Source: an uncultured archaeon
GTDB lineage: Archaea > Iainarchaeota > Iainarchaeia > Iainarchaeales > JAAZKV01
Length of the DNA: 64,000 nucleotides
Direction of reading: 5' to 3'
NCBI GenBank assembly: GCA_964619405.1
Contig: CAZUCF010000003.1
Coordinates: 25,192 to 89,191, forward strand
Shown here: positions 18,101-48,000 of the stretch, in pieces
Layout of the letters: each line of letters opens with the position of its first letter
Numbering within the stretch: the stretch's first letter is position 1
Notes under the pieces: model-generated
What the model saw: the letters and a program-made list of their open reading frames with translations, nothing else
Database searches by the model: none
What the model was told of the DNA's origin: nothing
Made by a program: the position numbers and the translations under genes

Positions 18101-18794
18101 CATTCATTAGAGCCATTATTACATCAAGCTCTTGATCCATACAAGAATTAATTTTTTTGTGTAATGGAACAAAGCCTTCTTTTGAAAAATTTAATGTAAA
18201 TTCATCTTTGCATTGTAATTCTAAAGAATAAGTGTTGTCATTTAATTTTGAAGATTTTATTGTCGCACCAGTTGCAGTTATTATTGTGTTAGAAAAGTTG
18301 GTTGATTCTCCAAAAATAATTCCAGAAATTTGTATTTGTTGAACAGGTGCAAAAAGATTTGGAATATTTATTATTGGAATATCAATATTTGGAATAATTG
18401 ACCCAATATCAGTCCCAAATAGTGGCGCAATAAATAACATTGCTAAACCAAAAAAAATAAAGCAAAGCAATACTCCTAAAACAAAACCAATTTTCCTAAA
18501 AACGCTTTTTAAAAAAAACTCTTTTTTTAAATGATGTTTAAAAACTTTTTTTTGCTTAATATTAAATTCATTCAATAATAAAGCAGTATCATTTTGACTT
18601 AAATCAAAATCATAAATTTTTTCTAATTTTTCAGAATCTTTTGTCAAATTAATCTTTTTTACAATTTCGTAAAAACCAATTATTTCTCTTAATTCATTAG
18701 GCGGCAAGTTTTCAAACGCCGAAATCAACTCAAATTTTGTAACACCTAGTTTAACGGATTTTAATATATCTTGTTTGATTTTATTATTTAACAA
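15144..18794 (-). CDS. large membrane-anchored extracellular protein (1216 aa), function unknown
   Basis: Single N-terminal TM (VLGVLLCFIFFGLAMLFIAPLF) after a roughly 95-aa cytoplasmic head, then a long Cys-containing ectodomain. A possible NlpC/P60- or CHAP-like segment (PGDIVVNDEHAGLIS) is only weakly supported. Confidence 0.6.
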   Translation of the reverse strand: MLNNKIKQDILKSVKLGVTKFELISAFENLPPNELREIIGFYEIVKKINLTKDSEKLEKIYDFDLSQNDTALLLNEFNIKQKKVFKHHLKKEFFLKSVFRKIGFVLGVLLCFIFFGLAMLFIAPLFGTDIGSIIPNIDIPIINIPNLFAPVQQIQISGIIFGESTNFSNTIITATGATIKSSKLNDNTYSLELQCKDEFTLNFSKEGFVPLHKKINSCMDQELDVIMALMNDFEKIDLNANNIVSDKIVEVELNGEDLVILGTNIVPEEAELSVTGFNPNTQGDMQYFPGELEGIDENGLETAFVSYGFAKIIAQDEKGNNLDFKNGTSAKITFQIDEAQQNNAPNQMPLWYFNETKGIWVQEGIAKKVCANGKCKYVGEMSKVHSWWNADKPAPRISIKFKSFNIWPKKSFGSLVAGLNKDVVFDHLVNAFNDFKNSGGGSEALQKLIDVLSMYSLDYSPQILANLKNLSSEEFAYGALFTILAKYYEGSLGWAHQSVYNHPFFGYKCNLFPYDIYSGWGVNLPFSSSPAIDFFGETVGYYLPAYTVNVFNSAQELPGLRRLAPNEMPLPGDIVVNDEHAGLISENGIGYGVMGSSLEHITENINGWGAWQPENSPYVYWRIDPNQIGSIPEFVTINSGPPLTIVPTGLILASSLNETIKVLDTNWKYGDFIFTEFDNYELVIKSPQGFNSFKINLEDLNKEKTVQVIAPVNLAFLSVNNIPSNPINFNFPSDSIDVNGFSLENCKLWGNDVLKISSCITNFDSFTGLFSKDALSFTNSLNINVKDKAKILLNIAKHYNYIDPCYDSFPFDYYAGIACIKVVDKNKEILAEYNLENILNKNLRDYDLTFVLRNLAQYYADANYCVPIPDEDQRNACFARTPAPEQLDNNTNINDIIEDMKKINLIDCKFDEKYSSPLKDDQGNYWIKEIDGSSVYAIKVAGKEIDCVGETKMKIIDGNIVPCISEVDIDDGCVLERKKVYTLNNSKENYVKQNKYERSKIDVIYKQNEVDFIDINGNIWFMVDEEGYPKTLRLNSGLEFIEKQEIFDLRDKENLTITKVIKVKPSKNLYWVILESPLHKVYTDYVNDGYTRGRMCYNVDHTYHAPIQNTSTAGFGSTSYYGLYGEATSIFAKDYNGQTITKLKTKVGCSQDYDSTPFEQGDSVSATMWPPDFVAEGKYFAADEYNTLLVLNSNTLLEYTKDSNDIEYPSAKTIVE

Positions 18795-26636: not shown

Positions 26637-27190
26637 TGCGCGTTTAGTACGCGCTTAGGTTTGTTTGATGGATATCTTCTTGGTTTTTAACGTATTGTTT
26701 GGTTGTTTCTAAATCTACTGAACCAATACTTCGATAAAATTTTCCTCTGCTCCACATGTGTCCTTTTGTGTATCTATTTCTTAGATTTGGATGTTTTTTG
26801 AAATACTCGTATGATGATCTTCCTTTCAACAAATTTGTTGCTTTTGCTAAACTGATTTCTGGATTTACATGCACTACCATATGCACGTGATCTGGCATAA
26901 CTGCTAACTCCTCTATTCGCATTTTATGTTCTTTTGCAATTTGTTGCAAAATATTTTCCATATCTTCTTTACTACCCTCTTTTCTAAAAACGTTAAATCT
27001 ATATTTAGGACACCACTCTATATGATATACACATTGATAGATTGCGTGGGCTCCGCTCACTAAATCATTCATGTTTGAAAAACTCCTGTGCAGTTCCAAA
27101 GTGGCGCGGCAGCGCCACGCTGCGCAAAAAAGATACTACTTAGAAATAGATAATTAGCTCGCTTTCATCCGCACCTTAAAAGGTGCAGTT
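26606..27190 (-). mobile_element. IS200/IS605-family element carrying tnpA only (boundaries approximate)
   Basis: A Y1 HUH transposase gene is flanked by GC-rich subterminal hairpins in an AT-rich context: ccacaccc-taaa-gggtgtgg (26606..26625), gcgcg-tttagta-cgcgc (26638..26654), gtggcgc-ggca-gcgccac (27101..27118) and gcacc-ttaaaa-ggtgc (27171..27186). Confidence 0.7.
26644..27072 (-). CDS. tnpA: IS200/IS605-family Y1 transposase TnpA
   Basis: YHIEWCPKYR, HUH motif PDHVHMVVHV, C-terminal catalytic Tyr region (TKQYVKNQ). ATG at 27072 (TTG at 27099 is an alternative). Confidence 0.85.
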   Translation of the reverse strand: MNDLVSGAHAIYQCVYHIEWCPKYRFNVFRKEGSKEDMENILQQIAKEHKMRIEELAVMPDHVHMVVHVNPEISLAKATNLLKGRSSYEYFKKHPNLRNRYTKGHMWSRGKFYRSIGSVDLETTKQYVKNQEDIHQTNLSAY

Positions 27191-28179: not shown

Positions 28180-29421
28180 CTATTCTAAAAGCCACTTCCA
28201 AACTGGCTTAACAACAATCTTTACACCATCAACAACAAACTCTCTTTCTTGATCATAAGTCAAAAGCAACCCCCTCTTCAACTTATAACTCTTACAAGCC
28301 TCAACCAAACCACTAACTTCTCTTTTTTCATTCTCTTCATTCAAAGAATAACAAACCTGAATCGCCCTAACAATTTTCAAACCCTTTTTTATTACAAAAT
28401 CACACTCTTTCTTTTCTCTATGATAAAACACTTCATTATCCCTTGACTTCAAATCAATTAAAACAAGATTTTCTAATGTTGAACCATTATTTTCAGAAAA
28501 TTTAAATCCAACTTCTTTTAAAAAACCAATATCTGAAGAATAAAATTTTCTAGAATTCAAAATTTGTTTCTTATACGAATAATTAAATTTCCTCACTTCA
28601 ATAAAAAGAAAAGAATTCAAAAAATACCCCAAATATTTCTTAACAAGACTTTTAGAAGAAATTCCTGCCACTTCACCCATTTTTGAATAGGAAATATCTC
28701 TTCCAACCGCATTAATTAAATAAGTTGCAAGAATTTTAAGTTCCTCAACATTTTGTAAACTATACCTTGAAACAATATCCCTATAAAAAATATCAGAATA
28801 ATACTGTTTAATTAAAAAAGAATCATTTTCTTGTACTACAAGTGGAAAACCACCTAACAAAAAATAAGATTTAAAAGCACGTTTTATAGATGCTAATTTA
28901 CTTGTTGAACTAAAATCACTTGGAATATTTCTAAACCTAAGAAATTCCTTAAAAGAAAAAGGACTTAAATAAACCACAATATTTCTACCAGTTAATGCTG
29001 TTGCTATTTCTGAACTTAATAATTTAGCATTTGAACCGGTAACAAATATTTTAATGCCTTGTTCATACATTCTATTCAAAAATTTTTCCCAACCAGGAAT
29101 CACTTGAATTTCATCAAAATAAAAAACAAAATCCTTAGGATTTGATTCTAAAAAAAGCTCAAAAAGTGAATTAAAATCATCTGAGGAAAAATTAACAACC
29201 CGCTCATCATCAAAATTAAAATACAAAAAATCTTTTTTTAACTCTTTATTAATTAACTGTAATAAAGTAGATTTGCCACACCGCCTAATACCAGAAATAA
29301 TAACAATTTGTCTAGTCTTTAATAATTTAGATAAATCTAAATCTCTTTTAATTAATGGTTTATTTTTTAAGAAAAATTCTTTTTGATCAGCCATTATTAG
29401 TTTTAATTTTTCTTTATCCAC
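28180..29421 (-). CDS. AAA-family ATPase with C-terminal DUF4143-like domain
   Basis: Walker A GIRRCGKST, Walker B-like FYFDEIQ, about 410 aa. This is the AAA_14/DUF4143 architecture common in archaea. Confidence 0.75.
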   Translation of the reverse strand: MDKEKLKLIMADQKEFFLKNKPLIKRDLDLSKLLKTRQIVIISGIRRCGKSTLLQLINKELKKDFLYFNFDDERVVNFSSDDFNSLFELFLESNPKDFVFYFDEIQVIPGWEKFLNRMYEQGIKIFVTGSNAKLLSSEIATALTGRNIVVYLSPFSFKEFLRFRNIPSDFSSTSKLASIKRAFKSYFLLGGFPLVVQENDSFLIKQYYSDIFYRDIVSRYSLQNVEELKILATYLINAVGRDISYSKMGEVAGISSKSLVKKYLGYFLNSFLFIEVRKFNYSYKKQILNSRKFYSSDIGFLKEVGFKFSENNGSTLENLVLIDLKSRDNEVFYHREKKECDFVIKKGLKIVRAIQVCYSLNEENEKREVSGLVEACKSYKLKRGLLLTYDQEREFVVDGVKIVVKPVWKWLLE

Positions 29422-29694
29422 ACAAATAGTAAAGAACGATTGATATATAAATCTTTCTTTCTAAAAGAACGCTTTTAATACTATTAAATCATGAAAAAAT
29501 ACAAACCACCATTCTTCACTGTGCCAAACATTTAATGTTTTTTTATATTCAAAAACTGAAAGTTTTTGATTTTTAAAATCACCAGATTTTAATCCTTCAA
29601 AAACTAACAAGGCATCATTAGAATCTATAAAAACACCTTATCTTAAATAGTATAAAAACACTCCACGAGTGCCATACCAGTAAAACAATTAAAA

Positions 29695-30942
29695 TTAACC
29701 AATATTTTTTAAAAACTCTTTTTTTATCCTAAAACAATTCGCATGCTTAAAATGTCCAAAATAAGAAGCTTTAGTTGATTCGAATTGCTTTTTATCAAAA
29801 TCATCTAACTCTTTATTTTTTACTAATTCATTATAACTACTTATTTTTTTCTTGAAATTTGTTAAAACCCTTTTTCTCACATAAACAGAATAAGGTCTTA
29901 TAATATAACCAAGAAAATCAATCCCATTAGTTAGAGGTAAAAGAATTGATTCTTTTTTCAAATCAAGTAGCAAATTACTTTTAACAAAAAACAAAATCCT
30001 AAAAAAACAATCTAACAAAAAACTTTTGCTTTTTGAAAGCAAAATAAAATCATCAACATACCTAACATAATGTTTGATTCTCAATTTTTGTTTTATAAAA
30101 AAGTCAAGTTCGTGCAAATAAATATTGGCAAAAAACTGGCTGGAATAATTACCAATAGGCAAACCCTTGTTTTTTTCTGTATTGAATAAAGATTTGTGTT
30201 TCGGAATTTTTTCCCAATATTTTTCTCTTGATTTTTTAACAAAATTTTCTTGAGGACAAGAAAAAACAATTATTTTTAACAGAAAAATTAATTCTTCTTT
30301 TTGATTAAAAGAAAACAAATCAGAAGAGACAACTCTCTTTTTTATTAATTTAAAGAGTATTTTCTTATCAATACTCATAAAAAAATTCTGTACATCTAGT
30401 TGTAAAAAATAACCCCTTTTATAAGATTTCGAACTATTCTGATAGGATTGAGTAAACTTTTTTAAACACTTAACTGCTTTATGCGTTCCTTTCCCTTTTC
30501 TACAAGCATAACTATCAAAAATAAACCTTTTCTCATAAATCTTTTCTAATTCTTTTACCAAAATATGGTGGACTATTCTGTCTCTAAAATCAGCTGCAAA
30601 AATTTCTCTTGGTTTTGGTTTTAAAACAACAAAACAAACAGAACGCCTCGGAACATAAGTCTTATTGTTTAAAAAAGAATGTAAATCGAAAAGATTTTGC
30701 TCTAAGTTCTTTTCAAACTTTAAAGCATTACTATTATTTCTTTTTCCTTTCCTACATTCCTCGTAAGCTCTGTAAATGTTTTCTATCCCAAGGATTGTGT
30801 CTTTTTCCGAACGAACACACCTAACTCCGTTGTTGTTGTCGTTAGTCTTATTGTCGTTGTTGATATTACCATTGTTGGAATTCAAGTTGTAAGCGTTACT
30901 AGTATTACTAGGAACAGTAGAACTATTTTGTGGAATATTCAT
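29695..30942 (-). CDS. diversity-generating retroelement reverse transcriptase
   Basis: RT motifs LDVQNFFMSI, the DGR-specific GLPIGNYSSQFFANIYL, YVRYVDDFILL and IDFLGY. The first roughly 46 codons of the only ATG-initiated frame are the template repeat itself. Confidence 0.9.
   Translation of the reverse strand: MNIPQNSSTVPSNTSNAYNLNSNNGNINNDNKTNDNNNGVRCVRSEKDTILGIENIYRAYEECRKGKRNNSNALKFEKNLEQNLFDLHSFLNNKTYVPRRSVCFVVLKPKPREIFAADFRDRIVHHILVKELEKIYEKRFIFDSYACRKGKGTHKAVKCLKKFTQSYQNSSKSYKRGYFLQLDVQNFFMSIDKKILFKLIKKRVVSSDLFSFNQKEELIFLLKIIVFSCPQENFVKKSREKYWEKIPKHKSLFNTEKNKGLPIGNYSSQFFANIYLHELDFFIKQKLRIKHYVRYVDDFILLSKSKSFLLDCFFRILFFVKSNLLLDLKKESILLPLTNGIDFLGYIIRPYSVYVRKRVLTNFKKKISSYNELVKNKELDDFDKKQFESTKASYFGHFKHANCFRIKKEFLKNIG
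30804..30918 (-). repeat. DGR template repeat (TR)
   Basis: Aligns with 31599..31710. It is adenine-rich on the coding strand (AAC/AAT codons, translating to NSNNGNINNDNKTNDNNNGVRCVRSE), and the 3' 26 nt are identical to the VR. Confidence 0.85.
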
Positions 30943-31145
30943 AACTAAAAAAACCTCAGTCTTAATAGTGTCTTTTTCGCCTCACAAATTTTTTTTGGCA
31001 TATGGCTTTCCACATCAAAAAGCACCTAACCATTAAACACTCTTATCCCAAAGGATAAAATTCTGGGCACAATTCTGTTTGCTTTCTAACAACTTTGTTG
31101 TTAGTACCCACTAAATTAGTGAGAATAAATTACTAACACACTTTT

Positions 31146-31490
31146 TTATTGGACACTATTACTCCAACCATTTGCTTGCTTTGCTAAATCAACTATTAAA
31201 CCAGTTGAATAAATATAAGAATTAAAATTATGAAAAACCTTCGCTTCCTTACACAAACGAACAATCATTTTTAATTCCTCAACCAAAACAACCAACTCTC
31301 TTAAAACAATTTTTTTATCAACAAGAGAATTTGCTTTTGCAATACAAACACATATTTCTCTACTCTTATTTCTCAAATCACTTCCAAGAGTATATTTATT
31401 ATACCTAGAAAAATTCTTCACAATCTTTTCAAAATACAATGCTAAATCAAACGCTTTCTTATAAATCGACAAACTATCATATTGAGCCAT
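31146..31490 (-). CDS. avd: Avd-like accessory variability determinant (four-helix-bundle / 23S rRNA IVS protein family)
   Basis: 114 aa with a predicted helical-bundle sequence, MAQYDSLSIYKKAFDLALYFEKIVKNFSRYNKYTLGSDLRNKSREI, typical of the family. It lies between the target gene and the TR. Confidence 0.7.
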   Translation of the reverse strand: MAQYDSLSIYKKAFDLALYFEKIVKNFSRYNKYTLGSDLRNKSREICVCIAKANSLVDKKIVLRELVVLVEELKMIVRLCKEAKVFHNFNSYIYSTGLIVDLAKQANGWSNSVQ

Positions 31491-31515
31491 ACACAAACAC
31501 CACTTTAAAATTTTC

Positions 31516-31536
31516 GTGCCGCGCCCTTTCGGGCAC
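31516..31536 (-). other. GC-rich GNRA-tetraloop hairpin downstream of the VR
   Basis: The minus strand reads GTGCCCGAAAGGGCGCGGCAC. GCCC-GAAA-GGGC forms a 4-bp stem with a GAAA loop (an alternative is a 5-bp GTGCC/GGCAC stem). It sits 58-78 nt after the target stop codon. Confidence 0.4.
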
Positions 31537-31593
31537 TTTCTTTTTTCATCTCCCACTTAACCTCTAAACATAAAATTTTAAATCATCAAATTT

Positions 31594-32652
31594 TTAACTT
31601 TCCGAACGAACACACCTAACTCCGAACTTGTCGTCGCTAGTCTCATAGGCGGAGAGGATACCATCGAAGGAATTCAGGTAGTACGCGTAACCAGTAGAGC
31701 TAGGAACAGTGGTGCTTGACCAATAACCAAAACAAGTCGAATTCCAACCAGTTTGAGTAAAAACACTATTCAAATAACTCGAAGAAGGGTAACTCATGTC
31801 AGGCAAAGTTGCTAACTCAACAAAAGAAGGAACTCTCCAGTCACCAACACTAGAACCGTCAGTCAAACCATCAACACCATTAGCAAGAGTACTACAATAA
31901 CTCAAAGCACTCTCCCCACTCTCCCAAGTAACAGTCTTACAAGTACCCCCACTCATTCTATGATTCTTCTGCCAACACAAACCAGTATGATTATCTAAAA
32001 CAGTCCCACCACCACAACCATCAGCAGTATAACTTTTTGCAGTACCATCCTGCTCTTTATCATCCAAATCCCCAACATCATAACTAGTTGTTTGACCACT
32101 ATGAAGTTCAACCGCAAAAGGGCATTGATCAGCTAACATATTAGCATTAACAGTGTAAGGCGTGCAATCAAAAAAAACTTTTGAAGGATAACGCTCTGTT
32201 TTTGTCAAACCTTGACGAGTAACATAAGTAACAACCAAATCCTCTTGCAAAATCTTTCCTTCCTCACACACTGTTTCAGCATCAACTACAAAATACTTTG
32301 AACCACCCTGAGCCAAATCCTCTGAAAACAAAACCTCTTCACCACCAAGCTCAATCTTACTAATAGTCAAAATATTGCCAGTATTATTCAACAACTTAAC
32401 AGCAAACTCTCCATCACTATTAACCATTGACTCGGTAACACCAATACTAGAAGACATTACAGCCAACTCACTAGAATCGCTAGAAACACTAGAACCAGAA
32501 TCAAGAAAACCAACTAACAAACCAACAACCACAAGAGAAATAACAATAACAACACCAATTATTACAAGGTATTCTATGGTTCCTTGTCCTTTAGAATTTT
32601 TAACAAAACACTCACCAAAAAACATTTTAACTACACCCCTAAAAAAAACCAT
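31594..32652 (-). CDS. DGR target: type IV pilin-like (class III signal peptide) protein with C-terminal DUF1566/C-type-lectin-fold variable domain
   Basis: N-terminus KGQGTIEYLVIIGVVIVISLVVVGLL (archaeal prepilin-like). C-terminus GLCWQKN...DWRVPSFVELATL...YWSST...FGVRCVRSES (DUF1566-like), ending in the VR. Confidence 0.85.
   Translation of the reverse strand: MVFFRGVVKMFFGECFVKNSKGQGTIEYLVIIGVVIVISLVVVGLLVGFLDSGSSVSSDSSELAVMSSSIGVTESMVNSDGEFAVKLLNNTGNILTISKIELGGEEVLFSEDLAQGGSKYFVVDAETVCEEGKILQEDLVVTYVTRQGLTKTERYPSKVFFDCTPYTVNANMLADQCPFAVELHSGQTTSYDVGDLDDKEQDGTAKSYTADGCGGGTVLDNHTGLCWQKNHRMSGGTCKTVTWESGESALSYCSTLANGVDGLTDGSSVGDWRVPSFVELATLPDMSYPSSSYLNSVFTQTGWNSTCFGYWSSTTVPSSTGYAYYLNSFDGILSAYETSDDKFGVRCVRSES
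31599..31710 (-). repeat. DGR variable repeat (VR)
   Basis: 112 nt at the 3' end of the target CDS are homologous to the TR. Mismatches fall overwhelmingly at TR adenines. Confidence 0.85.
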
Positions 32653-32681: not shown

Positions 32682-32699
32682 ATATATATATATATATAT
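32682..32699. repeat. (AT)9 dinucleotide microsatellite
   Basis: atatatatatatatatat lies 30-47 nt upstream of the target gene's ATG at 32652. Confidence 0.9.
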
Positions 32700-32951
32700 T
32701 TGTTTGAAAAATTGGAAAAAAATTATTTTACCCAACACTTCACTTCAAAACCCATTCTTTTAATCACAATTCTCACTTTTTTTATAATTGCCCAAATCCT
32801 TCAAATCCAATAATAAAAAACCACTAATTTTTGGTTTTGATTTAAATGATTTCGCAAACAAAATTTATCCAACCACGAGTTTAATCAAAAAATAATTAGT
32901 ATAATTACAATTATATTATCAAACTGTTTTTTTATCAAAAAAATAATCAAA

Positions 32952-33908
32952 TCATTTTATTGATTGGATTTTTTTTATTATTTTTATAAGAAATGATAAA
33001 AGATTTTCTTTAAATACAACATAATCTTTTTTGTTCAACTCAATAAGCAACAATAATTCTATATCATCATCACTTTTTAAAAAATCTTGGGTTTTTTCTT
33101 GGAGTATTTTAATTGATCTTAAAAGATGCTTATCAACATATTGAATAAAACCCTCTGAACTTAAAACCTTCCTTTTAATTAAGCTAGTATTTATTTTATT
33201 TAAAGGACAAAGTTTGTCAAGAAGATACAAATCAAGAATATCCCTTTCTTTTAAAGTATTTCTAGTCAAAATCGCGCGTACCTTTTCAAGCATCACTTCA
33301 CGAATATCATATTGGAGAATACTTACCTTTACAAGATCATAATTTATTACATTGAGTCGCTTTTTTTCAACCCCCAAAAATTCAGCAAAATTAAACAAAC
33401 TATCTTCCTTGCATTTAAATACCAAATCTTCAATAAAATTAATCTCAATCTTAACCACTTCTTCATTTGAATTAATAAGAGAGGTATAATACAAATACAA
33501 TTTGTACACTGAGCGATCATTCAAAATTTTTACATATTTTGCATTTGTTCTACTAGTCTGAAAATCAAAACCGTTTTGATCAGCAATTTTTTTAAACGCT
33601 TCAATAAGAGGAATAATAGTTTTCTTTATCCTAGCTTCACGCGTTTTTCCTTTCAAAAGACGAATTTCTTTAGAATCCTTATGAGTAAAATCAAGATCCA
33701 CACTAATACGATGATAATTTAGATATTTTTTTGTAAGAAGCGTTCCACCTTTAAAAATAAGTCCTTGTAATTGAGTTTCTTGTGTTTTTAATTTTTGATA
33801 AGAACTAAGAACTTTAGAAAGCACATAATCTTTCTCAATAGATTCAAGAGAAATATTTTTCTTACTTTGAATTAATTTTCCATAAATAGCAAACTCTGTT
33901 TTATCCAT
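32952..33908 (-). CDS. AbiEii/AbiGii-family nucleotidyltransferase toxin (type IV TA)
   Basis: FKGGTLLTKKYLNYHRISVDLDF nucleotidyltransferase signature, about 318 aa. Overlaps the upstream partner gene by 8 nt. Confidence 0.75.
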   Translation of the reverse strand: MDKTEFAIYGKLIQSKKNISLESIEKDYVLSKVLSSYQKLKTQETQLQGLIFKGGTLLTKKYLNYHRISVDLDFTHKDSKEIRLLKGKTREARIKKTIIPLIEAFKKIADQNGFDFQTSRTNAKYVKILNDRSVYKLYLYYTSLINSNEEVVKIEINFIEDLVFKCKEDSLFNFAEFLGVEKKRLNVINYDLVKVSILQYDIREVMLEKVRAILTRNTLKERDILDLYLLDKLCPLNKINTSLIKRKVLSSEGFIQYVDKHLLRSIKILQEKTQDFLKSDDDIELLLLIELNKKDYVVFKENLLSFLIKIIKKIQSIK

Positions 33909-34521
33909 TTAATTCAACCTTTGCTTTTAAAAAGCTTGGAACTTTTAACAAATATTTTTTTAATTTTTGTTTATTTTTCTTATCTAGCAAATCTAAAGGA
34001 ACTTTCTTTTTATAATAAACAAAATCAATAATAGTTTTTTCAATGTCGGAATAATTCCAAACAATATTTTGAGAATTTTTTAACTCACAAACACCAAAAA
34101 AAAGATCTTTACGCATTTTTTTGAACAAAAACACTTGATTAAATATATTAAAAGAACCAGAAAATTTAGAATTAATAATAATTGTCCTGTTTATTGCTTG
34201 CCAAACAACTTTATTTTGCACAAGCGCACTTTCAAGTCCTAAATACCAATCAATATTTAATTCATTTAATATAATATACATCATTTCCAAAGGAGCCATT
34301 TTATTAAAATCTTTCTCAACTTCCTCAGCATCCCTTACATAATAATATTTTTTCCAAACATATAATATTTTTTTTGACTCACGAAGACTCCTAAACAAAG
34401 CAAAAGTAGAACAAGAATTAATCGTTTGATTTAAATGTGAACAAATTTCTTTTTTTGAAACAACTTTCTTTTTAAGACCATCAAGTGCTTGACGTGCAAG
34501 AAGATTATCATCAAGAGTCAT
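33901..34521 (-). CDS. putative AbiEi-like antitoxin/transcriptional regulator
   Basis: 206-aa ORF immediately upstream of, and translationally coupled to, the AbiEii-like gene. The call rests on position and size, not on a clear motif. Confidence 0.45.
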   Translation of the reverse strand: MTLDDNLLARQALDGLKKKVVSKKEICSHLNQTINSCSTFALFRSLRESKKILYVWKKYYYVRDAEEVEKDFNKMAPLEMMYIILNELNIDWYLGLESALVQNKVVWQAINRTIIINSKFSGSFNIFNQVFLFKKMRKDLFFGVCELKNSQNIVWNYSDIEKTIIDFVYYKKKVPLDLLDKKNKQKLKKYLLKVPSFLKAKVELNG

Positions 34522-34686: not shown

Positions 34687-36699
34687 TTAATACAAATTAT
34701 CAAATATTTTTTTGCCATCATTTTCTTCCAAGAATTTTTTTCTCTCATTCACATACTCTTGTATTTTTTTTGCTATGTCTGGAGTAACGTGTTTGAATCT
34801 TCCTTGTATCATTAAATATTCTTCAACAGGAATTTGCGTTGGCTTTGCACTTAATTTTAGAACACCTTCTTCAATCTCGTATATGGGTGAAACCCACGAG
34901 TCAAGCGCTTTTTTTGCAACGTCAATAGTACTACTTGGATCTATTTTCCACCCTGGAATACAAGGAACTAAAACATGTAAAAAACTCGGACCATTCACTT
35001 TCAAAGCTTTTTCTACTTTGCTTTTCAAATCAATTAAATTTGTTACACTAGCAGTTGCAACATAATTTAATCCGTGGGCTGCAACAATAAAAGGCAAGGG
35101 TTTTTTTGGTTGTTGTTTTCCTTTAATTATTTTTCCTGCTGGGCTAGTAGTAGTGCTTGCATAAGGGAATGTTGCTCCGCTTCTTTGTATTCCCGTGTTA
35201 TGTACTACTATTCCGTTTGCTATAAAATTGTGTTCTCCTTCTACTCGCAAGTCAAGTGTTGGCTCTACTCCCTTTTTTTCTATTGAAATAATTTTTTTTG
35301 TTTCAAAGTACTCGTTCCCAAATAAATAATTTCTTTGTTTGTTTTGGTTAGCATATTTTAGTAATGCTCCTTGTTTTGAACTAAAACAAACATAACCATA
35401 TGTTGATTCTTTTAGCAATGCTCTTTTTACTACGAGAGTTCCTTCTTTTTTTGTTTGTGAATGAATTTTTCCAACTCGCACATCCATTGTTTGAAGTAAT
35501 AGTCTTAATGTTCTTAAAAGTTCAAAACTTGCTGAAACATACCTATTACTTTTTCCTATTTTGTATCCGTCAGAAAGCATTAATCCTTCAACAAAAGCTT
35601 CTTTTTCTTTTAATGGCAGAGTAAAAACCCATTGTGGAATTATTTTGTTTTTTGCGCCTTTTCCAAAGCCAAGGGAATCAAAAAACTTTGCTACGTTTAT
35701 TGAATTAATATGTAATTCATTATCATTTTCGCTTAAACAATTACTCCACAACAAGTTTTCTATTAATTGTTTTGCTTCTTTTCTTCCTTTAATTTTTTTT
35801 GGGAGAGCAAAACCAACTTCGGCCTTGTTTATTCTCGTCCAACCATCTCCAACATATATTCCAAGTAATTTCATTAATTCAATGGAAGAATTTTCTGGCA
35901 AATTAACTTCATTTATTTTGTTAACTTTATAATCACCTTTTTTTGATAAAACTATTTTAGAAAAATTAAATGGTTTTCCTTCTAAACCTTTTTTTAGTGA
36001 AACTATTTCGTCCCCAATTTTTAATTCTTCAACCATTTTCCAAACGAAATTGTTTTGCCCTTGTTTTCCATTTCTTTGTAGTACTAAGAAGGGATGATTT
36101 CCTGTTGCTTTTATTGTGTTTGAATTAGTATTAATTTCAAAAACTCTTTTTTTACCATTATCAAATACTCCAACACATTTTTTTAGAACTAGTTCATTTG
36201 TTTTTTGACCGAAAGCATAAACTTCGTCCCCAACATTTATTTCAGTAATTTTTTTAAGTCCGTCTTTTGTCATTATTAATGCGTCTAAAGCCAAGCAATT
36301 CATGTAAGCTTCATTGTCAGTTACAATATACAAAATTTTGTGGCCTCTTTCTACTGCTCCTGAAAGTGCTCCAAATCCAATGTCAAACATTGCTCCGTCT
36401 CCGCCCATCGCAATAACGTTTGTTTCTTTATCTCCTTTCGTATTTAATGCTGCCCTGATTCCTGATGCTACTGCTGCTGCGTTTTCAAATGCGCAGTGCA
36501 CGAATGGAATTTCCCAACTTGTTTCTGGATATGGTGTTGAAACTACTTCCATGCAACCAGTTGCTTGTGCTACAATTGTTTTTCTTCCAGCTGCTTTTAG
36601 TATGTGTCTTAGGGCTAGTGCTTCTCCGCACCCAGCGCATGCCCTGTGCCCGCTTGCAAAAAGTTCTTCTTCATTAATTCCCATTACAGCCATAATCAT
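34687..36699 (-). CDS. porB: pyruvate/2-oxoacid:ferredoxin oxidoreductase beta subunit, interrupted by an intein
   Basis: Exteins carry [16 protein letters not shown] and DNEAYMN|TGIQRSG (ThDP site). The mature size would be 303 aa. Confidence 0.85.
35197..36297 (-). mobile_element. intein (367 aa) with LAGLIDADG homing-endonuclease domain in PorB
   Basis: Starts with Cys ([13 protein letters not shown]), ends ANGIVVHN, followed by +1 Thr. LAGLIDADG motifs are [10 protein letters not shown] and [11 protein letters not shown]. Confidence 0.85.
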
Positions 36700-39395: not shown

Positions 39396-40208
39396 TTATA
39401 ACTTGATTTTTGTACTTTTTATTTCTTTTCCGAGTAAAGAATTTTCTAGATTCTTTTCAACAAACAAAGAAAATATTTCAGCGGGAACCCCGCTAAGTGT
39501 TTCAGCTAATTTTTCTAATTTTCCTTTCATTCCACCAGTAACATCAACTGAATTAGATTCTCCACATTGATTTAGAACTTCTTCTAAATTTTCTTTATTT
39601 ATTTCTTCAATTAAAATAGCACTTAAATCAATTTTGGGGTCTGCTGTAAAAATTCCATCAACATCTGTTCCCATCAAAACTTTTTTTGGAGCCAAATGTT
39701 TTGCTGTTTGCGCAATTACTTGGTCGCCCGACATTACACTCCACCCAAAACTTTTATCAGGAACCATTGTCCCAGTAGTTATTGGAATTATTCCTTCTTC
39801 TAAACATTTTTTGTATTCTTCTAAATTAAACGAGATTACTTTTCGTTCGTTTTGAACACAAATATCTGTTCCTAAAATTAGTTTTGATTTTATTCCAAAT
39901 TTTTCAAGTGCTTTAATTGTTTCATTTCCAACATAAGCACAATCTTTTTTTGTTTTTTCTACACCTTCTTCTTGTTCTCGCGTTTCTATTTTTCCATTTA
40001 AATTATAATTTACAACATTAGTGTGTCCAAATGGCCCAACACCACAAACAAGAATTATTTTTAAATCAGGATTTTTATCAAGTGCATTTTTTATTTCTTT
40101 GGCTGAGCGATTTAGAATTTCATAATTCATTTCAAATTTATTATCAGCTTTTTTTGTGATTGAAGAACCACCAAGTTTTAGAATTACTAAGTTATCCAAA
40201 ATAATCAC
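39396..40208 (-). CDS. ipk: isopentenyl phosphate kinase
   Basis: Amino-acid-kinase fold, VILKLGGSSITKK, GVGPFGH. Lies in the mevalonate cluster. Confidence 0.8.
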   Translation of the reverse strand: MIILDNLVILKLGGSSITKKADNKFEMNYEILNRSAKEIKNALDKNPDLKIILVCGVGPFGHTNVVNYNLNGKIETREQEEGVEKTKKDCAYVGNETIKALEKFGIKSKLILGTDICVQNERKVISFNLEEYKKCLEEGIIPITTGTMVPDKSFGWSVMSGDQVIAQTAKHLAPKKVLMGTDVDGIFTADPKIDLSAILIEEINKENLEEVLNQCGESNSVDVTGGMKGKLEKLAETLSGVPAEIFSLFVEKNLENSLLGKEIKSTKIKL

Positions 40209-40597
40209 TCAAATTCAATTGTCCCTTCTTCACCATTTACTTTTGCTTTCTTTACATCTTTTAATTTTTCAATATCAATTTTATCAATGCATGAAATTTC
40301 AGAAATTATTGCTCCAACAGCAACTATTGTTTCACATTCTTTATTCACTAAAGCTAACGGAGCTGTTCCTTGTTTTTTCATTCGATATAGTGCATAACTT
40401 CCAACAGTTGAACCTTTCCCTTGAGGAAAAACTAAAACTTTCCCAGTAATACATACCCCTTCAAGCGGGTGACCGCTTTCTGCAACTATTCCAGTATCTG
40501 GATTCACTCCTCCAAAAAAACTAATTCCTTCTGTTGTATAAAGTACTTCGCCTTCTGCTTTTCCTTTTGCAATTGTTCTTCCTTTTAGTGTACTCAT
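40205..40597 (-). CDS. aconitase X swivel-domain protein (DUF126): phosphomevalonate dehydratase small subunit
   Basis: About 130 aa, GKAEGEVL...SFFGGVNP...FPQGKGSTVG. ATGA overlap with the large subunit. Confidence 0.75.
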   Translation of the reverse strand: MSTLKGRTIAKGKAEGEVLYTTEGISFFGGVNPDTGIVAESGHPLEGVCITGKVLVFPQGKGSTVGSYALYRMKKQGTAPLALVNKECETIVAVGAIISEISCIDKIDIEKLKDVKKAKVNGEEGTIEFE

Positions 40598-41778
40598 TCT
40601 ACCACTTCTCCACATGCTTCTTTTACTAAGTTTTCAATTGACATTATTTTTACTTTAAAATTATTTTTTGCTGCTCCATAATAACATCCTTTTGCTGAAT
40701 CTGTTGCTAAACACTTAAAGCGTCCTTTTATTGGTGCTACTACACAGCAGGTATCACACGCAAATTTTGCTCCAGCTTCTTCTATTATTTTTACATAACC
40801 AATTTCTTCTGCTTGTTTTTTTATTGGTCTAGCAGTTGTAACCCAAAATTCTTTTACAACTTTTTTTCCTTCTAAGAGTTTTGCTAATTTTTCAAGTTCT
40901 TTTAAACTACAATGTGGACAACCAACACTCACAAAATCAACTTCACAATTATCATTTAAACTCGCAAGTGCTTTATCAATTTCTTCTTTTGTAACAGTAA
41001 TTGACTCGTCTGGAACTTGCGTTTTGTTTGGAGTTAAACCCTCCATGTGAAATATTGCTGCTCCACCATATGTTGCAATACTCGCTCCAAATGATTTTAA
41101 TTCTTCTACACTTGCCTCTTTTATTCCAACAATATAAGCTGGTTTGTTTTTTATTTTTTCTCCAATTACTTTTCCAAGTGCCCCAAAATATTCTGTTCCT
41201 TTGATTTTTGTTTCTACACTTACTTTTACTTTTGCAGCTCTGTTTTCATCTAAATGCATTCCATAAAGAGGAGTTTTTCCTGTTAATGCAGAAGCTAAAG
41301 CACTTGGCCCGCCTTCCCTGTTTGTGTATGCTCCAAGAACTGAGTTACAATATGCAACAGCACTACTTTCACTCCAAGCAACATGTTGACCTTCTTTAGG
41401 TTTATTTCCAATAAAATATGGTGTGCAAGTACAAGTTGTTTTTACACCCATTTGTGCAAATGAATCAATTACTGCTTTTTGTTTTTCTGCGAATTCTTTT
41501 GTCATTCCAAGAGCTTCCCAATTTTCAAGGTCCATTCCTGCTGGATTAAGCGTTGTTAAAACTTTTACGCGTCCATCTTTTGCAAGTTCTGCTAAGTATT
41601 CTAGACCAGCGTCCCCTAAATTATCATAACTTACTCCTGCAATTTGTACGCTTGTAACATCAACTAGTTTTTCTGCACCATAAATTTCTCCAAGGGCAAT
41701 TAATATTTCCATTGATTTTTTTACAGCATTTCCTTCTTTTCCATCAGCCATTTCTTGTTCTTGTTTTGTTAATAACAT
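40594..41778 (-). CDS. aconitase X catalytic-domain protein (DUF521): phosphomevalonate dehydratase large subunit
   Basis: 394 aa, a DUF521-like sequence with Cys ligand candidates (TCTCTPY, GCPHCS, ACDTCCVV). Mevalonate cluster context. Confidence 0.75.
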   Translation of the reverse strand: MLLTKQEQEMADGKEGNAVKKSMEILIALGEIYGAEKLVDVTSVQIAGVSYDNLGDAGLEYLAELAKDGRVKVLTTLNPAGMDLENWEALGMTKEFAEKQKAVIDSFAQMGVKTTCTCTPYFIGNKPKEGQHVAWSESSAVAYCNSVLGAYTNREGGPSALASALTGKTPLYGMHLDENRAAKVKVSVETKIKGTEYFGALGKVIGEKIKNKPAYIVGIKEASVEELKSFGASIATYGGAAIFHMEGLTPNKTQVPDESITVTKEEIDKALASLNDNCEVDFVSVGCPHCSLKELEKLAKLLEGKKVVKEFWVTTARPIKKQAEEIGYVKIIEEAGAKFACDTCCVVAPIKGRFKCLATDSAKGCYYGAAKNNFKVKIMSIENLVKEACGEVVE

Positions 41779-41851
41779 TTTTTCACCAAAAAAATTTACA
41801 ATAAATTTATTACAATTATTTTAAATTAATTTTATAAACCACTTTAAAATC

Positions 41852-43138
41852 TTATAAATAATCTTTAATATTATATTCTGGAAATTTTTGTTTTGTCATT
41901 TCACAAACCCTATTAAGCGGCATTGTTAAATCAAATCCTGCTTTACAAGTGAGTCTTGTATTTGGATCACCACTTGGATCAAGTGAAGAACCTTTTTCTC
42001 CAGGAAAAGTATACAAATCTTTATCTGCTTGAAATCTTGTAGCCATTGCCCATTCTACTTCTAGTGGATTATAGATATTTATATCTTTATCAACTACAAA
42101 AAAATGTTTTCCACTAGTGTGCCCTTTCATTGCAGCAAGAATCGCATTTTTTCCTTCTTCATCACTTTTTTTATTTATTTTTATTAAAACATGTAACCAA
42201 CTTGTTCCTCCAGGATTAACTGAAACATCAACTATATCTATTCCTGATTTTTTTACTTCTTGGAAAACAGTTGGTTCTCTTGGCATCCCCATTAATATTT
42301 TATGTTCAAACCCACCAGGAAGTAATGCATGGTAAATATAATTTGGTCTTGTGTAAATTTTTTCAACTGTAAATGTTGGTTCTTCTCTTATTATGTCTGG
42401 TGTTTCGGTTAGATCAACAAATGGACCTTCACTATGTTTTTGATTTAGACTTAAAGTTCCTTCCATTATTATTTCTGCATCTGCTGGAAGAATTGCATCA
42501 AAAGTTTTTGCTTTTATTACTTTGATTGGTTTTAGAGTATTTGCAATTGTTAATTCATTAACTCCTATTGGAGGAGCCATTGCAGCAGCTAAAAGTGTTT
42601 CTCCTCCGCAACCAATACAATATGCAGCTTTTACTTCCCCATTATTTTTTTTAAGAATTTCCATTGTGTTTCTTTCAAGAATTCTAAGAACGATTTTATT
42701 TTTATCAAATACCATCCCTCTATGAAAGCATACATTTTGTCCTAGTTCAGAATCTTTTACTATTATTATTCCTGAAGAAACATATGGCCCACCATCTGCC
42801 TTTGTATGTGTTAAAATTGGAATTTTTTCAAGATCTACTTCTTGATCTTGGTGGTCTGTATTTGTTACAACTTCTGGTTCGCTTGGTTTTTTTAGAGCAT
42901 TAATCATTTTTGGAACAAGATCTTTTACTTTACACTTAAGATATTTTGCTACTTTTTCTTTTGAGGCAAAAACATTTACCGCTACGCGGTTTTCATTTTC
43001 TTTTACGTTTTCAAAAAGAATCATTTCGTCTTTTGTAGAATGAACTATTCCACTTAACTCTAAATTTTTTGATACTTCTTTTGTTATTCTTATTTCGGCA
43101 TTATTTTCAACAAATTCTCTCAGGGTCATTGTTTCCAC
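41852..43138 (-). CDS. UbiD-family decarboxylase (anhydromevalonate phosphate decarboxylase candidate)
   Basis: 428-aa UbiD-like protein, adjacent to and overlapping ubiX and next to the AcnX genes. Confidence 0.7.
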   Translation of the reverse strand: METMTLREFVENNAEIRITKEVSKNLELSGIVHSTKDEMILFENVKENENRVAVNVFASKEKVAKYLKCKVKDLVPKMINALKKPSEPEVVTNTDHQDQEVDLEKIPILTHTKADGGPYVSSGIIIVKDSELGQNVCFHRGMVFDKNKIVLRILERNTMEILKKNNGEVKAAYCIGCGGETLLAAAMAPPIGVNELTIANTLKPIKVIKAKTFDAILPADAEIIMEGTLSLNQKHSEGPFVDLTETPDIIREEPTFTVEKIYTRPNYIYHALLPGGFEHKILMGMPREPTVFQEVKKSGIDIVDVSVNPGGTSWLHVLIKINKKSDEEGKNAILAAMKGHTSGKHFFVVDKDINIYNPLEVEWAMATRFQADKDLYTFPGEKGSSLDPSGDPNTRLTCKAGFDLTMPLNRVCEMTKQKFPEYNIKDYL

Positions 43139-43683
43139 CTGTTATAATTATTATTTTTTATCCCTAATAAGTCTAACGCTTTTCCAATAATAAAATCTTC
43201 TAAATCACTTATCTGTTTTGGTTTTCCATAAAAACCTGGACTAAGAGGAAAAATTATCCCACCATATTTTGATATTGTCGCTAATTGTTCTAAGCATGGC
43301 CCGCTCAAAGGAGTTTCTCTTAAACCAATTATTAATGGTTTTTTGTATCGGAGCATTATGTCAGCGCACCTTGTAATGAGGGTTGATGTGTGAGCATTAG
43401 CTATTTCTGAAATTGTTTTTACTGATGCTGGAATTATTATCATTCCATCTATTAGAAAACTTGAAGAAGATATTTTTGCAGCCATATCTTTGTTTGAATA
43501 ATTTTTGGAAGCTAATTTTTTTAATTCTAAAATTTTTTTGTTTGTTTCTTGTTCAAAAACTTTTTCTGCCCACTCGCTAATAATTAAGTGTGTTTCAATT
43601 TTTTGTTTTTTTAATTCTTTTAGTAAAGCAAGTGCATAGTTTGTTCCACTCGCACCAGTTACTCCGACAATAATTTTTTGCAT
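43126..43683 (-). CDS. ubiX: flavin prenyltransferase UbiX
   Basis: IIVGVTGASG, PASVKT. About 185 aa. Confidence 0.85.
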   Translation of the reverse strand: MQKIIVGVTGASGTNYALALLKELKKQKIETHLIISEWAEKVFEQETNKKILELKKLASKNYSNKDMAAKISSSSFLIDGMIIIPASVKTISEIANAHTSTLITRCADIMLRYKKPLIIGLRETPLSGPCLEQLATISKYGGIIFPLSPGFYGKPKQISDLEDFIIGKALDLLGIKNNNYNRWKQ

Positions 43684-43717
43684 AAAAATAACCAAAACTA
43701 AAATTAATTAAAAAAAT

Positions 43718-44653
43718 TTAACTTATTTTTGCTTTTATTAGAGAATAATTTTTTGCTTGTAGTAATTCAAAGATTTTGTTTTGCTGTTGTTCTGTTTCAC
43801 ACAATATTATTACATTGCCCCCACAACCAGCACCAGTAACTTTTGCTCCCAAGCAATTCTCAAATGTAGCTGTTTTAATTATTTCTTCTGCTTCTTTGCA
43901 AGAAACACTTATTTTTCTTAGTAATTCTTGGTTCTGGTTCATTAGGTTACCAATTTCTTTTAGGCCACCAAATTTTAATTCTTGTTTTGCTTTTACAACA
44001 ATTTTTTTGTAATCTGAAAAAATTTTTTCAAATTCTTTTTTGTTTTCTTCTTTTTTCTTTGCAACCATTTCAACTATTTGTTTTGTACTCTCTTTTTTTA
44101 CTCCTGTGTCAACAACTAACAAGTATAATGTTTTAGCACACTTCAATAATTTAATATTGTTTTTCCCACCACCCTTGTTTTTTTCGAAAAGGATTGTTGT
44201 CCCATATGTTGCACAAGTATTATCTATTCCTGATGGGGTACCATGAGAAACTTTCTCGCATTCAAATGCTAAATCATTTATTTCTTCTTCTTTTAAATCC
44301 AAATTTAAGTGTTGTGATGTTGCGCGAGCCATTGCTACTGCTAGTGAAGCTGACAAACCCATTCCACCGCCAGGAACAGCGTTACCAGAAAAAGTAATTT
44401 TTATTTTGTTTAAACCATATTTTTCTATTATTGGTTTGAATATTCTGCTTTTAATGTGCTCTGGATTCTTTTTAATGTCAATTTTTTCTTTAAAGAATAC
44501 TGGGTCGTCTATAATAATCGTATCATCGTTTATCGGAGCAATTTTTATTTCAACGAACCTGTCTATTCCTGATGCTATTCCTGGTAAACCATAGACAACA
44601 AAGTGTTCTCCGAACAAAATTATTTTTGAATAACCTTTTCCTATTGCAACCAT
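43718..44653 (-). CDS. mvk: mevalonate kinase
   Basis: GHMP kinase motifs KIILFGEHFVVYG, VPGGGMGLSASLAVA, KVTGAGCGG. Confidence 0.85.
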   Translation of the reverse strand: MVAIGKGYSKIILFGEHFVVYGLPGIASGIDRFVEIKIAPINDDTIIIDDPVFFKEKIDIKKNPEHIKSRIFKPIIEKYGLNKIKITFSGNAVPGGGMGLSASLAVAMARATSQHLNLDLKEEEINDLAFECEKVSHGTPSGIDNTCATYGTTILFEKNKGGGKNNIKLLKCAKTLYLLVVDTGVKKESTKQIVEMVAKKKEENKKEFEKIFSDYKKIVVKAKQELKFGGLKEIGNLMNQNQELLRKISVSCKEAEEIIKTATFENCLGAKVTGAGCGGNVIILCETEQQQNKIFELLQAKNYSLIKAKIS

Positions 44654-44740
44654 TTTATCACTAAAAAATTAATTAAAAATTATAAACTATTTAATATTAA
44701 ATTGGTTAAAAACAATTAAAAAAAGTTGTTTTTAGATTAA

Positions 44741-45157: not shown

Positions 45158-45161
45158 TAAT

Positions 45162-45467: not shown

Positions 45468-45527
45468 ACCTCATTAAAACTTTTATTATAATGTTTTTTT
45501 TTATTTTAATATATTTTTAATTTAATA

Positions 45528-46804: not shown

Positions 46805-46931
46805 ACAACCGCCCAGCCGGTTGACGTCTGTATTTTGCTATTGCAAAATTTTTTGTCAACTTTATAATCATTCATAAATATTACCTAATTTTTTAAAAAA
46901 AATTCTTTTGATAAAACTTTTTTTAAAAGTT

Positions 46932-47969: not shown

Positions 47970-48000
47970 AAATATTACCAACTTGTAACTCTTTTTAATA

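Follow-up and report, generated by a model that had tools for sequence, protein, structure and literature searches.

A probable diversity-generating retroelement in a DPANN archaeon, with a predicted pilin-like target protein and a candidate RNA organiser upstream of its template

Introduction

Does a compact group of elements in an archaeal genome make up a diversity-generating retroelement (DGR), and if it does, what protein is diversified and how is the template presented to the enzyme that copies it? These questions are raised by a ~3 kb cassette within 64,000 nucleotides of contig CAZUCF010000003.1 (GenBank assembly GCA_964619405.1, positions 25,192 to 89,191), a stretch with a GC content of ~29% that we refer to as the window. 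Here a target gene ending in a variable repeat (VR), the gene for an accessory variability determinant (avd), a structured spacer, a template repeat (TR) and a gene for a reverse transcriptase (RT) follow one another in that order on the minus strand. An earlier note on this DNA had identified the cassette as a complete DGR in a DPANN-like archaeal genome, and the coordinates it assigned to target, avd, TR, VR and RT were all correct. We conclude, with a probability that we put at roughly 85%, that the locus is a chromosomal, gene-complete DGR of a DPANN (Diapherotrites/Iainarchaeota-like) archaeon.

DGRs are a recognised and prominent feature of DPANN lineages (PMC5758913, PMC8867640, PMC8144416). 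The remark in the earlier note that they are rare in archaea was thus half right (PMC5758913, PMC8867640), and the case is not exceptional because DGRs are already prominent in DPANN lineages. The targets of DGRs from archaea and candidate phyla radiation (CPR) bacteria have for the most part no recognisable transmembrane or conserved domains and have been called 'entirely uncharacterized' (PMC8144416, PMC8867640); those of DPANN archaea, so far described as essentially uncharacterised, are presumed to mediate attachment.

Substitutions between TR and VR are concentrated at adenines

The features of the cassette and its flanks are collected in Table 1. Over 112 aligned columns TR and VR differ at 23 positions, of which 19 are adenines in TR, three are T (30907, 30892 and 30885) and one is C (30832). 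Mismatches thus affect 19/42 adenines as against 4/70 other bases (Fisher's exact test, one-sided p = 9.5e-7), and every mismatched TR adenine occupies codon position 1 or 2. The best alignment takes a single 3-nt gap, in which VR lacks TAA/AAT/ATA opposite GGTAATATC of TR (~30866-30868), and a repeat finder recovers the pair as two blocks offset by 3 nt; the deletion is in frame and leaves the target open reading frame (ORF) intact. A shared 25-mer occurs at two sites only in the window (0 expected by chance), and no further VR-like copies or remote targets were found in the 64 kb.

TR reads TVPSNTSNAYNLNSNNGNINNDNKTNDNNNGVRCVRSE and contains 14 AAY codons. Of its 44 adenines, 39 precede the invariant 26 nt. 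The coding potential comes to ~1e23 protein variants, in which one AAG codon is able to become a stop. TR and VR share a reading frame, TR being located within the RT ORF, a point absent from the earlier note. That note had counted 19 substitutions at TR adenines, which is exact, and had left out the four other mismatches and the 3-nt VR deletion; its statements that the final 26 nt are identical and that TR is built from AAY codons agree with the alignment and the codon count, and the adenine bias it described persists when mismatches are tabulated formally by TR base.

How unusual is a pair with four non-adenine differences? The strict DGR criterion of Paul 2015 admits at most two per 100 bp (PMC4372165) and would exclude this pair, which falls within the range reported by Wu 2018. 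In that survey non-adenine substitutions were present in 23% of DGRs and indels in 7%. Most of these indels had a length divisible by three and adjoined AAC/AAT runs, and the CPR/DPANN set was particularly rich in them (PMC5758913).

Divergence between the repeats begins directly beyond their last 26 nt, the part that resembles an initiation of mutagenic homing (IMH) sequence. Because these 26 nt are the same in TR and VR, any element that sets the direction of transfer must sit in the flanks, for example at TTTGATGATTT, ~10 nt downstream of VR. This motif recurs beside the VRs of the related cassettes L002, L006/L007, L009 and L019 and, in a variant form, beside that of L003; it is a candidate for recognition on the target side, or may belong to the avd promoter.

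Table 1. Coordinates, in window numbering, of the cassette features and of the neighbouring genes
Feature	Position	Strand	Remarks
Target gene	31594..32652	-	ORF of 352 aa
Class III (type IV prepilin-like) signal peptide, KGQGTIEYLVIIGVVIV	32527..32595	-	Q+1 and E+5 of presumed cleavage site
Predicted pilin-like beta-sandwich	32158..32451	-	Follows the N-terminal helix
Lcl_C (DUF1566) lectin-type domain	31606..32007	-	VR at its C-terminal end
VR	31599..31710	-	112 nt; ends one codon before target stop
IMH-like 3' end of VR	31599..31624	-	26 nt, identical to TR 30804..30829
TTTGATGATTT motif	31580..31590	-	VR 3' flank
avd	31146..31490	-	114 aa, from conserved MAQYDSL start
avd-TR spacer, conserved structured RNA	30943..31145	-	203 nt, several covarying hairpins
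Candidate organiser strand, GUGCUUUUU-GA-UGUGGAA	31009..31025	-	
RT ORF	29695..30942	-	415 aa
UUCCACA, candidate cDNA stop duplex	30929..30935	-	Partner of organiser 3' half
TR	30804..30918	-	115 nt, inside RT ORF
AAAAAGACAC at TR 3' edge	30797..30806	-	Partner of organiser 5' half
IGNYSSQ motif (RT)	30136..30156	-	Motif 4 type [I/L]GxxxSQ
YVDD motif (RT)	30049..30060	-	
IS200-like Y1 transposase	26644-27099		DGR flank
AAA_14/DUF4143 ATPase	28180-29421		DGR flank
AbiEii toxin gene	32952-33908		DGR flank
ORF upstream of, and overlapping, AbiEii	33901-34521		May be AbiEi partner

The RT and Avd are of DGR type, and TR is read as the start of the RT

The RT matches RVT_1 of Pfam (E 9e-16), and its best match in the PDB is the DGR RT of the Bordetella phage (bRT, 8ub7; E 7.6e-36, 127 bits), whereas group II and retron-type RTs in the same database reach E 6.8e-9 or worse and at most 38 bits. 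In the alignment to bRT, IGNYSSQ stands over IGSLTSQ and YVDD over YMDD. By its motifs and its closest solved relative the enzyme is a DGR-type RT, and its ORF is full length with respect to its relatives (100% coverage).

Avd matches both bAvd of Pfam and DivGenRetAVD of NCBIfam over the full length of the models (E 5.1e-9 in each case), and the 9/9 aligned Avds from related cassettes match bAvd, the best of them at 8.5e-13. An AlphaFold (AF2) model contains four helices with a predicted local distance difference test score (pLDDT) of 68, and Foldseek placed it with 2rld at a template modelling (TM) score of 0.84 and with 2gsc at up to 0.76, both of which are pentameric bundles of the 23S-IVP/S23 family. 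When the structure of bAvd was solved it was reportedly compared with this same family. The protein is a member of the Avd family, modelled as a four-helix bundle. The proposals of the earlier note for a DGR-type RT with its characteristic motif and YVDD, and for an Avd-like four-helix bundle, are both borne out by these matches.

The conserved RT domain, as defined by the alignment to bRT, begins at residue 48 (30801), the codon directly after TR, and there is no ATG, GTG or TTG between TR and this domain. An ATG located 8 codons 5' of TR is conserved in all close relatives and in the group with 58% RT identity, and the overlap between TR and the RT ORF is itself kept across lineages down to that same level. 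Among the more distant bacterial relatives, many carry annotations as RTs of ~540 aa that match Lcl_C at the N terminus, which is the same effect of a TR read as part of the ORF. The possibility that the TR-encoded extension is a conserved protein domain of the RT was considered and rejected. In L022 TR is read in a different frame, and the more distant relatives L018, L030 and L034 have an ATG of their own after TR; because of these two observations, the TR-encoded peptide itself is probably not what is selected. A TR inside the 5' end of the RT ORF also defines 'group 3' of DiGReF (PMC3521204). That scheme classifies annotations only, whereas the overlap described here is conserved across lineages.

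The target is a predicted pilin-like protein that ends in a lectin-type domain

The target gene as called by NCBI starts at the second Met (32625) and encodes 343 aa, and P0140 is 100% identical from M10. Three modules can be distinguished along the product. At the N terminus lies a class III signal peptide, which matches PF04021 of Pfam at E 1e-4 and 22.6 bits; PF04021 is precomputed for two target homologues, one homologue is named UPF0333, and the motif [AG]QGTIEYLVII, conserved in ~30 homologues, is present in the target of L005 as well. The body is predicted to adopt a pilin-like fold. In an AF2 model with a pLDDT of 77 overall and of 84-91 over residues ~70-165, the N-terminal half was matched by Foldseek to the archaeal type IV pilins and archaellins 6w8u, 8fk7, 8q30 and 9eq7 (E 2e-5 to 9e-4), at modest target-normalised TM scores of 0.34-0.48. 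The C-terminal module matches Lcl_C (PF07603) from end to end (E 8.6e-20, profile positions 1-117/117), and the corresponding half of the model was placed by Foldseek with the C-terminal domain of Legionella Lcl, 8q4e (TM(target) 0.61, root-mean-square deviation 4.1). A sequence search of the PDB with the target gave no meaningful match.

Homologues of the target number ~170 and come nearly all from uncultured archaea. Features common to 40 that were aligned are the [AG]QGTIEYLVII prepilin motif, a beta-rich body and the C-terminal domain, in which scaffold residues are fixed and positions opposite AAY codons vary freely. From its profile matches and predicted structure, the target is a modular archaeal type IV pilin-like protein with a variable lectin domain at its C terminus. 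Modular pilins carry an extra C-terminal module, as the target does. Given its class III signal peptide and predicted type IV pilin fold, the protein probably exposes its variable surface on a pilus or at the surface of the cell; no prepilin peptidase or assembly ATPase gene was found in the 64-kb window.

Some 30-45 nt 5' of the target start codon there is an (AT)n tract of ~18 nt (32683-32700), as there is in L005 (~6995-7010). It may be an archaeal TATA-type promoter of the target gene.

VR is rewritten in a sister lineage

Related cassettes, with RTs 58-89% identical to that of the window, keep the order target / avd / spacer / TR-RT, and the TR/VR pairs of all of them are cleaner than the pair described above. 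Mismatches at TR adenines number 16 in L003, 19 in L009 and L026, 21 in L022, 10 in L027 and 10 in L019 (where VR is partial), in each case with no mismatch at any other base; L002 has 17 and a single other mismatch, at the edge. Identity between the TR of the window and the TRs of L019, L007, L003 and L021 is 96-97%, as against 80-86% for the cassettes overall; per-segment identities, which come from a strict local aligner, are reliable for short segments only. The T at 30907 is common to the TRs of L019, L020 and L021, and the idea that both third-position T mismatches reflect drift of TR unique to the window was rejected on these grounds. The two non-adenine changes that remain after 30907 and 30892 are located on the VR side.

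The most informative comparison is between L006 and L007, contigs from two samples. Avd, spacer and TR show no difference between them, whereas VR differs at 20 positions, 20/20 of which correspond to TR adenines; L007 additionally lacks one codon in the AAC run. These differences are direct evidence that VR undergoes mutagenic turnover in a sister lineage. The RT gene also distinguishes the two contigs, by 10 closely grouped substitutions (L006:1045-1083 versus L007:1882-1920); this cluster begins exactly at the end of a third contig, L008, and looks like a strain-recombination or assembly junction.

For the organism of the window itself, the only other copy of the element found by exact look-ups of RT, Avd and target is a 2.5-kb contig of SRR11845624 in the Logan assemblies, which is 100% identical over 28839..31368 and ends before VR. 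The target of the window forms a singleton cluster, with the nearest homologue 66-67% identical, and no relatives of more than 86% nucleotide identity were found in the metagenome and GTDB scans.

Other features of the related contigs are recorded here as observations in their own right. Contigs often start or stop inside VR or TR (L005, L006, L019, L025 and L027); this is what would be seen if assemblers break at repeated hypervariable sequence, and it indirectly supports VR heterogeneity in the samples concerned. In L020, whose RT is 82% identical, the TR locus (~470-560) contains VR-like A-to-N substitutions together with a 1-nt insertion that would break the RT frame. Either it is an assembly chimera of TR and VR or TR itself has been mutagenised, which is conceivable because IMH and its TR counterpart, IMH*, are identical in this clade. 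Finally, an identical 102-bp sequence is found downstream of the RT in L003 (2477-2578) and upstream of the target in L005 (6516-6617), where it adjoins a 100-aa ORF resembling the C terminus of an IS5-type transposase. In the strain that L003 and L005 represent, the cassette may be bracketed by mobile-element repeats; no similar flanking repeats were found around the cassette of the window.

The host is a DPANN-like archaeon

The genes around the cassette and the best named matches support a DPANN-like archaeal host. Among the archaeal genes in the window are those for CDP-archaeol synthase (CarS), ribosomal proteins S3Ae and S13/S15, NOG1, D-aminoacyl-tRNA deacylase (DTD2) and a DHH-CID protein. 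The closest named relatives of its AcnX are from Diapherotrites (85% identity) and then Iainarchaeum (75%), and those relatives of the RT and target that bear names belong to Diapherotrites, Iainarchaeum, Woese-, Pace- and Nanoarchaeota. This placement, which agrees with that of the earlier note, rests on archaeal flanking genes, among them CarS, S3Ae and those of the mevalonate pathway, and on a best named match in Diapherotrites. The window is not itself among the species representatives of GTDB.

A conserved RNA precedes TR and could pair with both of its flanks

The spacer between avd and TR is conserved in blocks, and its hairpins show compensatory changes. Across the region from the avd stop to TR+130, 19 predicted base pairs are changed on both sides, compared with 10.9 +/- 1.9 in column shuffles (0/500 of which reach this number) and 2-7 in slid controls, the structure having come from the same alignment, which favours it. 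No Rfam family was detected in the window or in the avd-TR region at gathering or E-value thresholds.

One strand of the spacer, which we call the organiser, is complementary to both edges of TR. At the TR 3' edge it pairs, through its 5' half, with AAAAAG(A)CAC (30806..30797), leaving G30807 as the first unpaired template base beyond the helix. Its 3' half pairs with UUCCACA, 11 nt upstream of TR, in a duplex of -9.5 kcal/mol that 0/300 shuffles equal. Both helices and the GA linker between the two halves are retained in 14/14 related elements, including relatives at 58-63%. The second helix occurs in six sequence variants in one register (UGUGGGG/CCUUACA, UAUGGAA/UUCCAUA and UGCGAAC/GUUCGCA among them), with compensatory changes in L021/L025, in L022/L023 and in L009/L024/L027; in the first helix, GUGC:G(A)CAC is replaced by GUUUC:GAAAC in L024.

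A comparable strand is known from the Bordetella phage ribonucleoprotein (RNP), in which Sp forms a template:primer duplex with the TR 3' end, followed by Sp57-58 and then by the avd:Sp 'cPRT Stop' duplex (bioRxiv 10.1101/2023.10.23.563531). By analogy, the organiser would be a permuted version of this Sp scaffold with the strand placed upstream of TR, and the priming nucleotide would lie in, or next to, the invariant GA linker.

An exact 11-mer, GAAAAAGACAC, is found on both sides of TR, at 30968..30978 and at 30797-30807, and is conserved in relatives; the window contains 3 copies, against 0.08 expected. Pairing of the organiser with the TR 3' edge could be subject to competition from the upstream copy.

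A proposed mechanism and the alternatives to it

In the mechanism that we propose, a complex of RT and Avd would bind an RNA that extends from the avd-TR spacer through TR into the start of the RT gene. Pairing of the organiser with both TR flanks would loop TR out and place its 3' edge (~G30807) in the RT active site, with the duplex at UUCCACA as a candidate stop for cDNA synthesis. The RT would then copy TR into cDNA, misincorporating opposite adenines, and the cDNA would replace VR, with the shared 26-nt 3' end serving homing. As a result, as many as 14 AAY codons, along with other codons that contain A, could be recoded within the last ~37 residues of the Lcl_C lectin domain, and the variable lectin surface would plausibly contribute to attachment to host cells or other ligands. 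The combined reading, in which a DPANN clade of DGRs has a permuted RNA layout and diversifies the lectin module of an archaeal type IV pilin, is tentative, and we consider it somewhat doubtful as a whole.

A number of observations weigh against this picture or parts of it. The four non-adenine mismatches and the 3-nt indel of the window compare with 0-2 non-adenine differences, mostly none, in relatives, and these differences suggest that some time has elapsed since the last homing event. T30892 is found in this TR alone and VR retains the G that is common to all other TRs, so TR seems to have changed since VR was last rewritten. No VR or target variants of this organism were found in the collections searched. 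There is no GC-rich hairpin 3' of VR, where the sequence offers just a 7-bp A/T stem that is neither better than shuffles nor kept in L003 or L009; hairpins of the BPP-1 type follow VR in many but not all DGRs. Avd scores below the curated cut-offs (37 bits for bAvd, where the cut-off is 40), and PDB sequence searches with Avd, both as a single sequence and as a profile, gave no useful match. The class III signal peptide falls ~1 bit short of the Pfam cut-off of 23.7. In the RNA, the pairs between organiser and TR 3' edge are invariant in the close group, their covariation consisting of one between-group change, and the energy of this A/U-rich helix is unremarkable, ~10% of shuffles being as good. 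The 451-nt avd-TR RNA as a whole folds no better than its shuffles (z = -0.05), and the structural signal comes from covariation only.

Could the element be gene-complete but inactive at this locus, with VR a fossil of past homing that now drifts by ordinary mutation? The mismatches outside adenines and the lost codon, set against the clean A-only pairs of L003, L009, L019, L022 and L027, the T peculiar to this TR and the lack of VR variants in the collections searched are all what such a history would leave behind. Nevertheless, RT, Avd and TR are intact, the RT ORF has kept the length of its relatives, all AAY codons are retained in a TR that is better conserved than the cassette around it, and the target ORF is uninterrupted, with its indel in frame. 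Moreover, non-adenine substitutions and indels of 3n nucleotides accompany active DGRs at the frequencies given above, those of CPR and DPANN especially (PMC5758913), and L007, from a lineage with demonstrable turnover, also has a codon deletion. We regard inactivity as unlikely; current activity in this organism is unproven, and 'complete', the word chosen in the earlier note, describes the gene content only. Far less credible is a swap or merger of TR and VR during assembly, which would leave an apparent pattern of no biological origin. Breaks of related contigs within the repeats and the VR-like TR locus of L020 show where such errors might arise, but the independent Logan assembly is identical through TR and its flanks, this TR matches the consensus TR of its relatives, and VR is in frame and ends an intact target gene. 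At the very bottom of the scale is a locus that is no DGR at all, consisting of a group II intron or retron-type RT beside a chance or recombinational duplication of a gene 3' end. NCBIfam does return a group II intron RT model as its best match to the RT, at 96 bits; that database contains no DGR RT model, the match is far under the cut-off of 300, and its group II, retron and Drt models all stay far below their cut-offs. The RT is by far most similar, among solved structures, to bRT and has an SQ-type motif 4, an Avd gene accompanies it, no Rfam family such as group II intron RNA was detected, and adenine-specific mismatches at p ~1e-6 are joined by the same cassette in more than 10 lineages with A-only TR/VR pairs. 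We consider this explanation hardly conceivable.

A different kind of alternative concerns only the spacer RNA, which might control translation or transcription of the RT, for instance by occluding the RT start or by terminating the avd transcript, and not the priming and termination of cDNA synthesis. Such a role is suggested by the pairing of the organiser 3' half with RT codons 3-5, by a covarying hairpin just 5' of the ATG, over GAGG, and by the position of the first two hairpins, which come after the avd stop codon in the manner of a terminator. It leaves out of account that the organiser also pairs with the TR 3' edge, that the order TR-3' helix, 2-nt linker and TR-5' helix is the Bordetella RNP arrangement (bioRxiv 10.1101/2023.10.23.563531), and that the GA linker is invariant. 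The two roles are compatible and not mutually exclusive. As a replacement for a priming role, we judge control of the RT to be rather improbable, and we favour an organiser that would position TR for copying.

Relation to known DGRs

The prototype is the DGR of phage BPP-1 (mtd-VR / avd / TR / Sp / brt), with which the present element shares its four parts in the same order, the Avd family, adenine-specific mismatches, a VR at the end of a ligand-binding domain and a 3' end common to TR and VR. As in BPP-1, where the Sp strand pairs with both TR flanks across a 2-nt gap (bioRxiv 10.1101/2023.10.23.563531), one strand would bridge the template. The differences are nonetheless considerable. BPP-1 is phage-borne and this element is cellular and archaeal; the organising strand of BPP-1 is the spacer downstream of TR, whereas here it lies upstream; a spacer separates TR from the RT gene in BPP-1, whereas here TR is inside the RT ORF and there is none. 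The GC-rich hairpin that follows VR in BPP-1 has no counterpart in the window, nor is there a difference between IMH and IMH* within the shared 26 nt. In place of Mtd, a tail-fibre protein, the target here is pilin-like and carries an Lcl_C domain.

Closer in host group and in their small, AT-rich genomes are the DGRs of DPANN and CPR organisms, represented by those of Paul et al. 2017 (cited in PMC5758913 and PMC8867640), by the 'CPR set' of Wu et al. 2018 and by the archaeal clade of Roux et al. 2021 (PMC8144416). Several non-adenine substitutions and a 3n indel, as found in the window, are frequent in the CPR set (PMC5758913). DUF1566 is a standard DGR target domain, included with DUF823 and Fib_succ_major in 'category d / CLec2' (PMC5758913). 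Since DPANN DGRs are recognised and the target domain is a standard one, the locus belongs to a known kind. What sets its target apart from the mostly domainless proteins of archaeal and CPR surveys is that a class III signal peptide, a pilin fold and Lcl_C are recognisable in it.

The DGR of Legionella pneumophila likewise has its VR in a DUF1566/Lcl_C-type domain that ends in ...GVRCVR, and its target is also predicted to be surface-exposed. In Legionella the target, LdtA, is a bacterial lipoprotein with an outer-membrane anchor, whereas here an archaeal type IV prepilin-like N terminus would act as the anchor or export module. With archaeal type IV pilins and archaellins, such as the four solved structures named above, and with modular type IV pilins, the target shares a class III signal peptide with Q+1 and E+5, a hydrophobic N-terminal helix after it and a beta-sandwich body. 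In bacteria, type V pilus adhesins of Bacteroides are DGR targets (bioRxiv 10.1101/2024.11.15.621889). No pilin was described as the target of an archaeal DGR in the literature searched, leaving aside Paul et al. 2017, which may contain a mention.

Two points would extend the published surveys: a target family recognisable, from motifs and models, as prepilin-type proteins of predicted pilin fold, and a putative RNA organiser strand upstream of TR. The locus and its ~170 homologous targets make the presumption of attachment concrete, by joining a prepilin export signal, a pilin body and a DUF1566 lectin in one protein. If the combined reading is true, DGRs and pili would for the first time be tied together in archaea by a concrete molecular connection, and there would be a direct handle on how DPANN cells vary their attachment to hosts. 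The upstream organiser, if confirmed, would mean that the RNA scaffold of a DGR can be permuted around its template, which matters for the computational finding of DGR RNAs and for DGR engineering. With its compact cassette, cleanly paired relatives and turnover in a sister lineage, the element is a good candidate for reconstitution.

The genomic neighbourhood of the cassette

The cassette is located between the POR operon on one side and the deacylase gene on the other, with the nearest flanking genes as listed in Table 1. The neighbours of related cassettes are quite different and include a Lon protease, a LAGLIDADG endonuclease and a Bro-N protein; because of this, the cassette seems either to move or to occupy variable regions. 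No viral relatives of the cassette were found in a scan of IMG/VR, and tRNA scans for integration sites found nothing.

Elsewhere in the window, Pfam gives no match at E <= 1e-5 for two large ORFs, at 15144-18794 (1216 aa) and 50998-52425 (475 aa). A nearly complete mevalonate/isoprenoid cluster of archaeal type occupies 39396-49290 and 52614-57239. It comprises genes for an IPK-type kinase, the small and large subunits of AcnX, a UbiD-type decarboxylase, mevalonate kinase, thiolase, HMG-CoA synthase, HMG-CoA reductase, an FMN-dependent IDI-like enzyme and a polyprenyl synthetase. Lipid biosynthesis is missing from many DPANN genomes, which makes the presence of this cluster worth recording. 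Inteins with LAGLIDADG or Hint domains are found in three genes (34687-36699, 54762-57239 and 57409-60513), encoding the POR beta subunit, the polyprenyl synthetase and a DHH/DHH-CID (GAN/RecJ-like) protein.

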